DNA of 32,000 nt from Mycobacterium tuberculosis H37Rv (GTDB lineage: Bacteria > Actinomycetota > Actinomycetes > Mycobacteriales > Mycobacteriaceae). The first letter of the stretch is position 1; every line of letters starts with the position of its first letter. The stretch covers positions 810,001-842,000 of the forward strand of contig NC_000962.3 in assembly GCF_000195955.2 (NCBI RefSeq). The letters run 5' to 3'. The notes below the pieces were generated by a model, which was given only the letters and a program-made list of their open reading frames with translations, was not told where the DNA came from and did no database searches. Position numbers and translations under genes: made by a program. Shown here one piece after another: positions 20,855 through 22,303 of this stretch.

Positions 20855-21661
20855 TTGGTGCTGACGCGGCGCGCGCGTGAAGTGGCGCTGACACAGCACA
20901 TTGGGGTATCCGCGGAGACCGATCGGGCCGTCGTCCCCAAGCTGCGCCAGGCCTATGACAGCCTGGTGTGCGGTCGCCGCCGGCTTGGCGCCATTGGAGC
21001 CGAGATCGAGAACGCGGTGGCCCATCAGCGCGCGCTGGGCCTTGACACCCCGGCCGGTGCCCGTAACTTCTCCCGGTTTCTCGCCACCAAAGCACACGAC
21101 ATCACGCGAGTGCTGGCAGCAACCGCCGCGGAATCCCAGGCCGGCGCGGCGCGGTTGCGATCCCTGGCTTCGTCCTATCAGGCTGTGGGATTTGGCCCCA
21201 AACCCCAGGAGCCGCCTCCGGATCCAGTGCCATTTCCGCCCTACCAGCCGAAGGTGTGGGCGGCGTGCCGGGCGCGTGGCCAAGACCCGGACAAGGTCGT
21301 CAGGACGTTCCATCACGCGCCGATGAGCGCGAGATTCCGCTCGCTACCGGCCGGAGACTCCGTGTTGTACTGCGGCAATGACAAGTACGGGCTGCTGCAC
21401 ATTCAGGCCAAGCATGGACGCCAATGGCACGATATTGCGGATGCACGATGGCCGAGTGCAGGCAATTGGCGCTATCTCGCCGATTACGCAATCGGTGCCA
21501 CACTGGCCTACCCGGAGCGAGTGGAGTACAACCAAGACAACGACACGTTCGCCGTATACCGGAGAATGTCGTTGCCAGACGGCAGATACGTTTTCACAAC
21601 CCGCGTCATTATTTCGGCACGCGACGGGAAGATCATTACGGCCTTCCCGCAGACGACGTGA
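20855..21661 (+). CDS. Two-domain conserved hypothetical protein (Rv0739-like): helical N-domain, Pro-rich linker, C-terminal putative toxin-like domain
   Basis: 268-aa ORF with a GTG start. Linker GFGPKPQEPPPDPVPFPPYQP (aa 112-132). The C-domain has HIQAKHG (aa 182-188) and RVIISARDGKIITAFP (aa 250-265). Confidence 0.75.
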   Translation: MVLTRRAREVALTQHIGVSAETDRAVVPKLRQAYDSLVCGRRRLGAIGAEIENAVAHQRALGLDTPAGARNFSRFLATKAHDITRVLAATAAESQAGAARLRSLASSYQAVGFGPKPQEPPPDPVPFPPYQPKVWAACRARGQDPDKVVRTFHHAPMSARFRSLPAGDSVLYCGNDKYGLLHIQAKHGRQWHDIADARWPSAGNWRYLADYAIGATLAYPERVEYNQDNDTFAVYRRMSLPDGRYVFTTRVIISARDGKIITAFPQTT

Positions 21662-21694
21662 TGCGTCGGTTGGGAACTAAGGGAAGGTGATGGC

Positions 21695-22303
21695 GTGACC
21701 GGGCCACCGCGAAGCTATACAGGGCGCCGGGATCTCATCGCGGAGAAGCTGGAGCCGTACTTTCAGATCAGCGCCATGCTGCCGAAGAACACCAGACCCA
21801 CCTCGGAAACCGCCGAAGAGTTCTGGGACAACTCGCTGTGGTGCAGCTGGGGCGACCGAGAAACGGGATACACCCGCACCGTCACGGTTTCGATCTGCCA
21901 GGTGGCGGACGGCGAACGTGAGGCCGAAGGGGTTCGGGACATGATGCGGCTGGAGTGTCCGGCTGGGCTGGATCTACGGACACCCAACCCGGAGGCATAC
22001 GAGATTACCGGTCAGCGGCCCGGAGAATTCGTGTTCGTGCTCGGCTATCTGGGGCATGTGCGGGCCATCGTGGGCAACTGTTACATCGAGATCATGCCGA
22101 TGGGCACCAGGGTCGAGCTGAGCAAGTTGGCCGATGTGGCATTGGATATCGGCCGCAGTGTCGGATGCTCGGCCTACGAGAACGACTTCACGCTGCCGGA
22201 CATTCCAACGCAGTGGCGCAACCAGCCGCTGGGCTGGTACACGCAAGGCCTTGCCCCCTACCTGCCGGGGCTGTCGGACCCGAAAGACGCCGCCGAGGGC
22301 TGA
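21695..22303 (+). CDS. Acidic conserved hypothetical protein (Rv0740-like), candidate cognate partner of the upstream gene
   Basis: GTG 21695 is preceded by GGGAAGG (21681-21687) at 7-nt spacing. The internal ATG 21776, which would give 175 aa, has no SD. The gene begins 33 nt after the upstream stop. Confidence 0.7.

Follow-up and report, generated by a model that had tools for sequence, protein, structure and literature searches.

The Rv0739-Rv0740 gene pair

The DNA analyzed here, called the window throughout, is a stretch of 32,000 nucleotides (nt) of Mycobacterium tuberculosis H37Rv (NC_000962.3, positions 810,001 to 842,000), corresponding to the Rv0737 to Rv0750 region of M. tuberculosis-complex DNA, and our subject is a pair of adjacent forward-strand genes, Rv0739 and Rv0740, a putative toxin precursor and a putative immunity protein or inhibitor, respectively. 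In the open reading frame (ORF) list, the Rv0739-like gene (20855..21661, + strand) starts with TTG and encodes 268 amino acids (aa) plus stop, and the Rv0740-like gene (21695..22303, + strand) starts with GTG and encodes 202 aa plus stop. They are separated by 33 nt, and a Shine-Dalgarno-like GGGAAGG (21681..21687, + strand) is placed 7 nt upstream of the Rv0740 GTG. VapC31, also encoded in the window, occurs in unchanged form on M. tuberculosis chromosomes.

Three parts are recognized in Rv0739. The N-terminal helical domain (aa 5-110; 20867..21184, + strand) matches Pfam DUF4226 (PF10774; E 2.7e-27, 95.7 bits against a curated cut-off of 23.5). It is followed by a proline-rich "pre-toxin" linker (aa 112-132, GFGPKPQEPPPDPVPFPPYQP; 21188..21250, + strand), always found alongside the C-domain and conserved in both N-terminal architectures described below. 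The C-terminal domain (aa 133-268; 21251..21658, + strand), a candidate ribonuclease (RNase) toxin with a Barnase/EndoU/Colicin/RelE (BECR)-like fold predicted from AlphaFold2 (AF2), Foldseek and a family profile, contains the HIQAKHG motif (aa 182-188, with H182 and H187; 21398..21418, + strand) and ends in RVIISARDGKIITAFP (aa 250-265). The C-domain is basic (isoelectric point, pI, of 9.55), whereas Rv0740 is acidic (pI 4.65). Moreover, the C-domain is relatively poor in G+C, with 60.3% where the window averages 67.6%, and ranks within the lowest 4% of 408-nt segments; the values for 21541-21600 and 21601-21660 are 53.3% and 60.0%. An earlier note, made from the sequence alone, had described these ORFs, domain borders, motif and tail, the 33-nt gap with its Shine-Dalgarno sequence, the acidic 202-aa partner and the low G+C of the two C-domain lines, and we reproduced all of them.

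Rv0740 has been given as a shorter, 175-aa form (PMC1501019); since homologues keep the extreme N-terminus of the 202-aa reading, the GTG at 21695 is favored as its start. A sigma-70 promoter scan found no promoter, and an Rfam scan of 19500-22600 matched no family. On the opposite strand, a 313-aa ORF (20375-21316, - strand) overlaps Rv0738 and Rv0739, and was taken as the usual spurious long ORF of high-GC DNA.

Precomputed annotation assigns PF25845 (DUF7956) to a protein identical to Rv0740 (P0047), to all of its 99 homologues and to Rv0750. In our own scan, where the Pfam set did not include this newer model, Rv0740 had no match in Pfam or NCBIfam, and no helix-turn-helix, ribbon-helix-helix, AbrB or other DNA-binding domain was detected. 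Rv0740, a putative cytoplasmic protein, has no signal peptide, and its AF2 model (predicted local distance difference test, pLDDT, 85.6) had no significant Foldseek match in the PDB; weak matches to TM1622, TiME and the PknH sensor domain (E >= 0.015) were not used. Similarly, a phmmer search with Rv0740 against PDB sequences returned only HIV-1 gp41 chains, more than 100 of them, for aa 28-90 (best E 0.007), a Trp-rich stretch, and these were judged compositional or chance matches.

The C-terminal domain family and its predicted fold

The C-domain (aa 133-268) had no Pfam match even at E<=10 and none in NCBIfam. An exhaustive profile search of 1.84 billion cluster representatives recovered a family of 387 representatives at E<=1e-3, 178 of them at E<=1e-10, and a word-indexed search with the same residues found 46 mycobacterial or metagenomic proteins. 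This family is previously unnamed, is covered by no Pfam model, and its known members come from actinobacteria. Among 113 near-full-length matches, the domain stands at the C-terminus (median of 1 residue beyond it) behind a variable region with a median of 69 aa, and about 70% of these N-terminal regions are Sec-signal-like by a crude heuristic. In longer members it is fused to a matrixin metalloprotease (Mycolicibacterium cosmeticum), LGFP plus RTX repeats, CBM96, disaggregatase-like repeats or B-lectin, all of which are extracellular modules. A protein of 2860 aa (P0190) matching the profile in 20 stretches was set aside, its DUF5979 repeats being taken as accumulated weak beta-strand similarity.

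Family-wide invariant residues (Rv0739 numbering) are W135, C138, C173, G174, G179, H182 and W205, and near-invariant ones are K147, H187, W191, R206 and D210; Rv0739 keeps every invariant residue. The conserved pair C138-C173 probably forms a disulfide, and a second cysteine pair is present in many Sec-type members. In tblastn searches against 50,697 phage records, neither the toxin domain of Rv0739 nor the DUF7956 of Rv0740 was matched, and PHROGs and PADLOC gave no match for either protein.

We modeled aa 128-268 with AF2 from a 28-sequence alignment, and the best model (pLDDT 84.6; predicted template modeling score 0.82) shows two long helices and an antiparallel sheet of four strands, together with a small beta-meander at the N-terminus. 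When this model was compared with 350,542 PDB chains by Foldseek, the best match, although weak, was the BECR toxin CdiA-CT, chain 7m5f_C (E 4e-3, probability 1.00, template modeling (TM) score 0.44/0.51), over 117 columns of a 119-residue chain at about 19% identity; the CdiA-CT Kp342 entry 6cp9_C was also matched, lower in the list. The best viral-structure match was a 112-aa uncharacterized siphovirus protein (TM 0.51/0.62). Furthermore, a broad family hidden Markov model (HMM) searched against all PDB sequences placed "Toxin CdiA" 7m5f_C first (E 0.3), and a narrow one placed it fourth (E 1.2). In the profile alignment, LkCGnekyGyrHikkrHeedw pairs with LEKGNSKSGLQHIVEEHGDQF of 7M5F, a segment containing H47, E51 and H52, with the same H-x4-H spacing as H182/H187. 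These three residues are the active site proposed by the 7M5F depositors for this BECR toxin (PMC8616854, section 2.3).

Pfam evidence is thinner: the 7M5F motif matched PBECR1 weakly (E 0.12), and among 34 family members there were single weak matches to PBECR3 (0.021) and DUF4258 (0.085) and none to BrnT or RelE. We found the BECR assignment persuasive because two independent methods, neither significant alone, pick one chain out of about 177,000-350,000 on its proposed catalytic motif. A BECR-like fold is therefore considered likely for the modeled C-domain, which is probably a BECR-like nuclease toxin, while RNase activity stands at roughly even odds. The resemblance to DUF497/BrnT and RelE-fold toxins suggested in the earlier note agrees with the RelE/BrnT-superfamily fold of the best-supported reading; membership of DUF497/BrnT itself was not borne out, with no Pfam match at E<=10.

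Partner genes, sister loci and duplicated remnants

A DUF7956 alignment scan with one genome per species yielded 33 loci, in Mycobacterium/Mycolicibacterium genomes or metagenome-assembled genomes of uncultured actinobacteria. In 21 of these, as well as in the window, an ORF with an Rv0739-type C-domain ends about 30 nt 5' of the DUF7956 gene on the same strand. In-frame deletion of the toxin domain next to an intact immunity gene was found in three loci (L015, L016 and L051), larger deletions have produced fusions of N-domain and immunity protein in four others (L018, L022, L024 and L025) and in Rv0750 of M. tuberculosis, and extra or tandem DUF7956 copies occur in L011, L027, L029 and L037. 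The module decays in the pattern expected of toxin-immunity pairs.

Distant Sec-type members show the same arrangement, with a small same-strand gene 3-74 nt downstream in five of five cases. Four of these partners are mutually homologous (E 1e-5 to 1e-11 for three, and 1e-3 for a truncated fourth), acidic (pI 4.4-5.2), devoid of a signal peptide and unrelated to DUF7956. Since they are homologous to each other and not to DUF7956, the toxin family is paired with different partner families by clade.

The linker plus C-domain module occurs behind two N-terminal architectures, which we call type A (WxG) and type B (DUF4226). Type B is the architecture of the window and of 10 further intact loci from slow-growing species, M. 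simiae, M. szulgai, M. angelicum and M. colombiense among them. Type A comprises 11 loci (L008, L019-21, L026-28, L031, L033 and L037-38), in which a domain of about 180 aa bears an invariant PGGxxWxG motif and scores weakly against PPE and WXG100 profiles. In all 11, a gene of about 100 aa lies directly 5' and is EspC-like: these genes match Pfam T7SS_ESX_EspC (PF10824), two of them reaching the gathering score, with weak PE and EspB_PE matches, and their proteins end in YxxxD/E in five of six aligned examples, the sixth having FxxxE. The features of a type VII (ESX) substrate pair, a WxG domain and a YxxxD/E partner, are thus present in 11/11 type A loci and not in Rv0739.

The linker consensus, EPPPxPVP[FM]PPYQPKVW, has an identical pattern behind both architectures, and every linker-bearing protein found, in searches seeded with the C-domain or its partner, has the same C-domain. 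In these comparisons, the linker travels with the toxin domain and is attached to two unrelated N-domains. An hhalign match (probability 98.3) that had linked DUF4226 to the WxG-type N-domain, in its distal half, was retracted because its signal came entirely from the common proline-rich linker, being lost after trimming (E 0.15). In a word-indexed search, the Rv0739 N-domain retrieved close orthologues only, and no alternative C-termini on DUF4226 were seen there. By contrast with this, the type A N-domain does carry other cargo in a metagenome scan, namely an Abhydrolase_8 C-terminus in L052 (E 2.7e-28) and a glycine-rich one in L050; since it carries alternative C-termini, the polymorphism expected of polymorphic toxin systems is present. 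This polymorphism is located upstream of the proline-rich linker, itself a part of the toxin module. The earlier note had expected a conserved linker followed by a variable C-terminus; the variability was found instead on the WxG-type N-domain upstream.

L050 and L052 are metagenome contigs. In L052 (1130-2845), the EspC-like plus WxG pair with Abhydrolase_8 (former DUF1023) is a candidate ESX-exported effector of environmental mycobacteria, as is, in L050 (577-1857), the protein with a glycine-zipper-like C-terminus, behind which come an LpqN-like gene and an ORF resembling that of a membrane protein.

Type A loci resemble a known phage-borne system. By tblastn, their N-domain finds Dori gp88 and, in M. 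abscessus prophages, the "polymorphic toxin protein" (E 1e-11 to 8e-10, 34-40% identity; HMM E 2e-38 for the prophage protein), and the gene upstream matches the prophage "WXG100 protein" (HMM E 2e-9), the gene order of the prophage locus being WXG100, polymorphic toxin and immunity. Hatfull and colleagues described these cassettes, named PEST for a toxin that is phage-encoded and ESX-secreted, and modeled the proteins as PE/PPE-like heterodimers (PMC10654092). Two immunity-less PEST constructs transformed M. smegmatis inefficiently (PMC10654092), which is consistent with toxicity of the toxin. Type A loci appear chromosomal; in the two mycobacterial genomes whose neighborhood was examined, L037 and L038 lie between hisG and metH. 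In M. tuberculosis, PPE37 occupies this position, and the interval may be a hot spot for genes encoding ESX substrates. The L037 cassette has a further, weaker DUF7956 gene upstream (coordinates 6641-7120 and 8749-9324).

At the right edge of the window, a second linker copy is found (31928..32000, + strand), a remnant of the N-domain end plus linker that stops after PKVWD and is fused to the end of an Rv0740 paralogue (Rv0750). As claimed in the earlier note, it recurs at 93% identity without the N-domain: 56 of 60 positions agree over 21188-21247 (93.3%; 89% over 73 nt), and no DUF4226-like sequence lies upstream. We followed it into L002, the chromosome read past the window edge (473/474 nt of the overlap identical). 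The copy reads ...YRAIGFGPKPQEPPPDPVPFPPYQPKVWD and meets a stop codon 4 codons past the edge (...PPYQPKVWD*); 6 bases later, in another frame, come the last ~80 codons of the Rv0740 paralogue, annotated as the 81-aa Rv0750 and itself DUF7956. By blastn, L002 6701-6786 corresponds to window 21175-21260 at 90.7%, and L002 6793-7104 to window 22045-22356 at 96.5%. From this mapping, the right-hand copy is the same pair of genes after the loss of about 780 bp, which held all of the C-domain and the first 60% of the immunity gene. What the earlier note had taken for an orphan toxin cassette is, consequently, a decayed duplicate with an internal deletion. Between vapC31 and this remnant there is also a 45-aa ORF (31737-31874, - strand; MVRKHAFHWRYDSTEELELLNQLWQLVSLRLNFF...), a gene call in some assemblies, which may be a mobile-element fragment.

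The flanks are duplicated as well. After the right-hand copy come a repetitive extragenic palindrome (REP)-like palindrome and then the true 3' end of mmsB (Rv0751c). Pseudo-copies of that end, covering its last ~50 codons and grouped as repeat family D12, lie just upstream of Rv0739 (20621..20763, + strand) and at 25062-25201, with blastn identities of 86.9% and 88.7% to L002 7127-7271. After Rv0740, only the left arm of the REP-like palindrome is present (22311..22359, + strand; repeat family D16, from blastn and folding), cut at about 22356 and followed by transposase-fragment-like sequence, while long, perfect hairpins follow Rv0737 (element at 19690-19790, hairpin around 19700-19770; predicted folding free energy of -68.9 kcal/mol) and Rv0750 (L002 7060-7135); the element matched no Rfam family. 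On the simplest reading, there was an old tandem duplication, possibly a triplication, of the unit Rv0739-Rv0740-REP-mmsB 3' end; PE_PGRS genes, an insertion sequence fragment and vapBC31 would have come between the copies later, and the right copy would have decayed. The direct repeats at either border of the "genomic island" Rv0739-Rv0750, which is in the list of Ramage et al. (PMC2781298), would thereby be explained as leftovers of segmental duplication of a toxin-immunity locus.

The start of Rv0739 itself varies within the complex. A reading from the ATG at 20815 (MSDYSLGVPDETGLGADAARA...) matches orthologue N-termini and is put one frame off the annotated ORF by the length of a (GC)n tract (20869..20877, + strand). 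A GC4<->5 microsatellite has been described, with 268 aa for Rv0739 in H37Rv/CDC1551 and 282 aa for Mb0760 in M. bovis (PMC1501019).

Origin, present state and known systems

Taken together, we favor, with some reserve, the view that Rv0739 and Rv0740 form a toxin-immunity module of two genes, of the type seen in polymorphic toxin systems, and the best-supported reading, to which we lean to a similar extent, is a toxin-immunity pair with a RelE/BrnT-superfamily fold. The toxin/immunity reading of the earlier note is upheld by conserved synteny, a basic toxin with an acidic partner, repeated deletion of the toxin domain with the partner kept, and tandem partner genes. Among the features by which Zhang et al. 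2012 define polymorphic toxin systems (PMC3482391), a downstream immunity gene co-varying with the toxin domain is present, and orphan toxin/immunity cassettes downstream were not found in the window.

In the mechanism that we propose, aa 133-268 and the preceding proline-rich linker would form the toxin module, in which the general acid and base may be H182 and H187, with K147, R206 and D210 assisting. Rv0740 would bind the basic toxin domain and block its RNA-binding face, like barstar or CdiI, so that the producer is protected. In the sister loci, the linker-toxin-immunity module would be the cargo of an ESX trafficking pair, made of an EspC/PE-like protein and a WxG/PPE-like N-domain; in the Rv0739 lineage, DUF4226, an unrelated helical domain that has no partner gene, would have taken the place of this trafficking part. 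The M. tuberculosis complex locus looks like a relic in decay: its tandem duplicate has shrunk to Rv0750, frameshift alleles occur, and the immunity gene is dispensable. A bolder proposal, which we regard as speculative and rather unlikely, is that M. tuberculosis and other slow growers encode a second exported protein toxin besides CpnT/TNT, that is, a BECR-type RNase effector (Rv0739) with dedicated immunity (Rv0740), exported by an unrecognized DUF4226-dependent route and founding a large unnamed family of secreted RNase toxins.

Several observations weigh against an exported, active RNase toxin in M. tuberculosis. Regarding the fold, one AF2 model of five was confident (the other four having pLDDT 57-64), the structural match is modest (TM about 0.45-0.5, E about 1e-3), and the PDB sequence match by itself falls short of significance (E 0.3). 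Regarding export, a signal peptide, a WxG motif and an EspC-like partner gene were looked for in Rv0739 and none was detected; the N-domain lacks a WxG motif because aa 1-132 contain zero tryptophan, the YxxxD/E motif is absent from its DUF4226 domain, and EspC-like ORFs are present neither in the window nor at any other locus of the DUF4226 type. Likewise, DUF4226 showed no relation to the EspC-like partner proteins by hhalign, and none detectable to the WxG domain once the linker was removed. In the M. cosmeticum-like contig L046 (4410-4979), the matrixin::toxin-domain fusion is followed by a lipoprotein-like gene with a signal peptide and a Cys lipobox, and, if this gene encodes the immunity protein, the target of this member, at least, may be extracytoplasmic; a gene for an MspA porin is nearby. 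Regarding activity, Rv0740 is listed as split in CDC1551 (MT0765/MT0766) beside a full-length MT0764 (PMC1501019), its transposon mutants are viable in H37Rv and enriched under isoniazid (PMC8613195), and Rv0738-Rv0741 is deleted in some clinical isolates (bioRxiv 10.1101/2025.05.07.652570). Since an active, retained toxin should make its immunity gene essential, this dispensability weighs against an active toxin, and activity of Rv0739/Rv0740 in M. tuberculosis is doubtful.

These last observations lead to the possibility, which we rate somewhat below an even chance, that the pair in the M. tuberculosis complex is a non-functional relic of a toxin-immunity module, no longer exported, toxic or selected; this concerns its present state and is compatible with the origin preferred above. 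The split immunity gene, the clinical deletions and the viable mutants all speak for it, as do the absence of a trafficking domain and partner gene, the (GC)n slip that removes the ancestral start in H37Rv-type sequence, the decay of the sister copy to Rv0750, and independent toxin-domain deletions in 7 loci (six other mycobacterial genomes and one metagenome contig). On the other hand, both ORFs are intact in the window, the invariant residues are all retained in Rv0739, and purifying selection is suggested because 11 DUF4226-type loci of slow growers, including the window, keep both genes intact at 73-87% identity. A different target is a further alternative, namely that the C-domain is exported and acts on something other than RNA (e.g., as a cell-envelope enzyme or binding domain), with the downstream protein as its inhibitor or chaperone. 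The fusions to extracellular matrixin, CBM96, lectin and LGFP/RTX modules, the conserved cysteine pairs typical of extracytoplasmic proteins, the lipoprotein-like gene of L046 and the weak scores behind the BECR assignment would all suit it. We nevertheless consider it improbable: Rv0740 and four of five distant partners have no signal peptide, and because most partners lack one, a cytoplasmic site of neutralization is indicated; a basic toxin with an acidic partner fits a nucleic-acid enzyme, and the structural and the sequence search arrive independently at one RNase-superfamily toxin, which aligns on its proposed catalytic histidines.

Less probable still, and in our opinion very unlikely, is a classical intracellular type II toxin-antitoxin system, in which Rv0739 would be a RelE/BrnT-like mRNA interferase and Rv0740 a labile antitoxin repressing the operon. 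A BECR-type fold is common to RelE, MqsR and BrnT, and the genes form a tight bicistron with the toxin gene first, as is the case in brnTA and higBA. The locus also lies in an inferred island rich in toxin-antitoxin genes, beside vapBC31 (PMC2781298). However, Rv0740 has no DNA-binding Pfam domain, its fold matches no known antitoxin, it tolerates transposon insertion, and its 202 aa exceed the length of the toxin domain, which itself stands behind a 132-aa N-terminal extension. In addition, signal-peptide-like leaders, WxG/ESX domains or extracellular modules, and conserved cysteine pairs are found family-wide, and these are features of exported proteins.

The present results provide a testable role for both genes and delineate an undescribed toxin family with clear candidate catalytic residues. 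They also show that ESX toxin cassettes of the PEST-like kind are not confined to identified prophages or to the M. abscessus-chelonae complex, and the tuberculosis genes would derive from such a cassette by reduction. An active toxin would be relevant to competition among mycobacteria or to interaction with the host, and may bear on the reported link of Rv0740 disruption with isoniazid tolerance. Our literature search found no function assigned to Rv0739, Rv0740, DUF4226 or DUF7956; DUF7956/PF25845 was unmentioned, and DUF4226 appeared only in an unrelated context.

Among known systems, barnase/barstar and RNase Sa/Sai14 are secreted microbial RNases with a cytoplasmic inhibitor, and barnase belongs to the BECR superfamily. 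The Sec-type majority of the C-domain family is similar, consisting of small basic secreted proteins, mostly with conserved cysteines, and an acidic gene follows each C-domain member checked (4/5 without a signal peptide). However, barnase and RNase Sa give no sequence or top structural match to the C-domain, and the partners are unrelated to barstar. CpnT/TNT (Rv3903c) of M. tuberculosis likewise has two parts, a secretion domain at the N-terminus and a toxin at the C-terminus, and is ESX-dependent. Its immunity factor, IFT (Rv3902c), is encoded next to CpnT. TNT, however, is an NAD+ glycohydrolase and not a BECR-like domain. CpnT/TNT is described as the sole known secreted toxin of M. tuberculosis (PMC8092274). 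Two WXG motifs are present in the CpnT N-domain, which has EsxE/EsxF as partners (PMC10654092); for Rv0739, no comparable motifs or partners were found.

CdiA-CT/CdiI of Serratia marcescens BWH57 (7M5F) is the best structural and sequence-profile PDB match of the Rv0739 C-domain. The two toxin domains have in common the motif G-N-x-K-x-G-x-x-H-I-x-x-x-H-G, in which HIQAKHG is HMM-aligned to H47/E51/H52, and in both systems an immunity gene lies directly downstream. They differ in that CdiA-CT BWH57 is delivered by a type V (CdiB/CdiA) route in Gram-negative bacteria and has a 98-aa immunity protein unrelated to DUF7956, whereas an additional beta-meander at the N-terminus and a conserved pair of cysteines set the Rv0739 domain apart.

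PEST cassettes have a three-gene order in common with the type A sister loci of Rv0739. They are prophage-borne, whereas type A loci are apparently chromosomal, and such systems have been reported almost only in the M. abscessus-chelonae complex (PMC10654092); Rv0739 itself differs from them in having DUF4226 instead of the WxG domain and upstream partner. On sequence grounds, the Rv0739-type toxin domain and DUF7956 would be a new toxin/immunity (TOX/Imm) pair for a PEST-type system. In brief, the pair would belong to the ESX-associated polymorphic toxin cassettes, among which the toxin family, the first proposed role for DUF7956 and the unusual DUF4226 front end are new.

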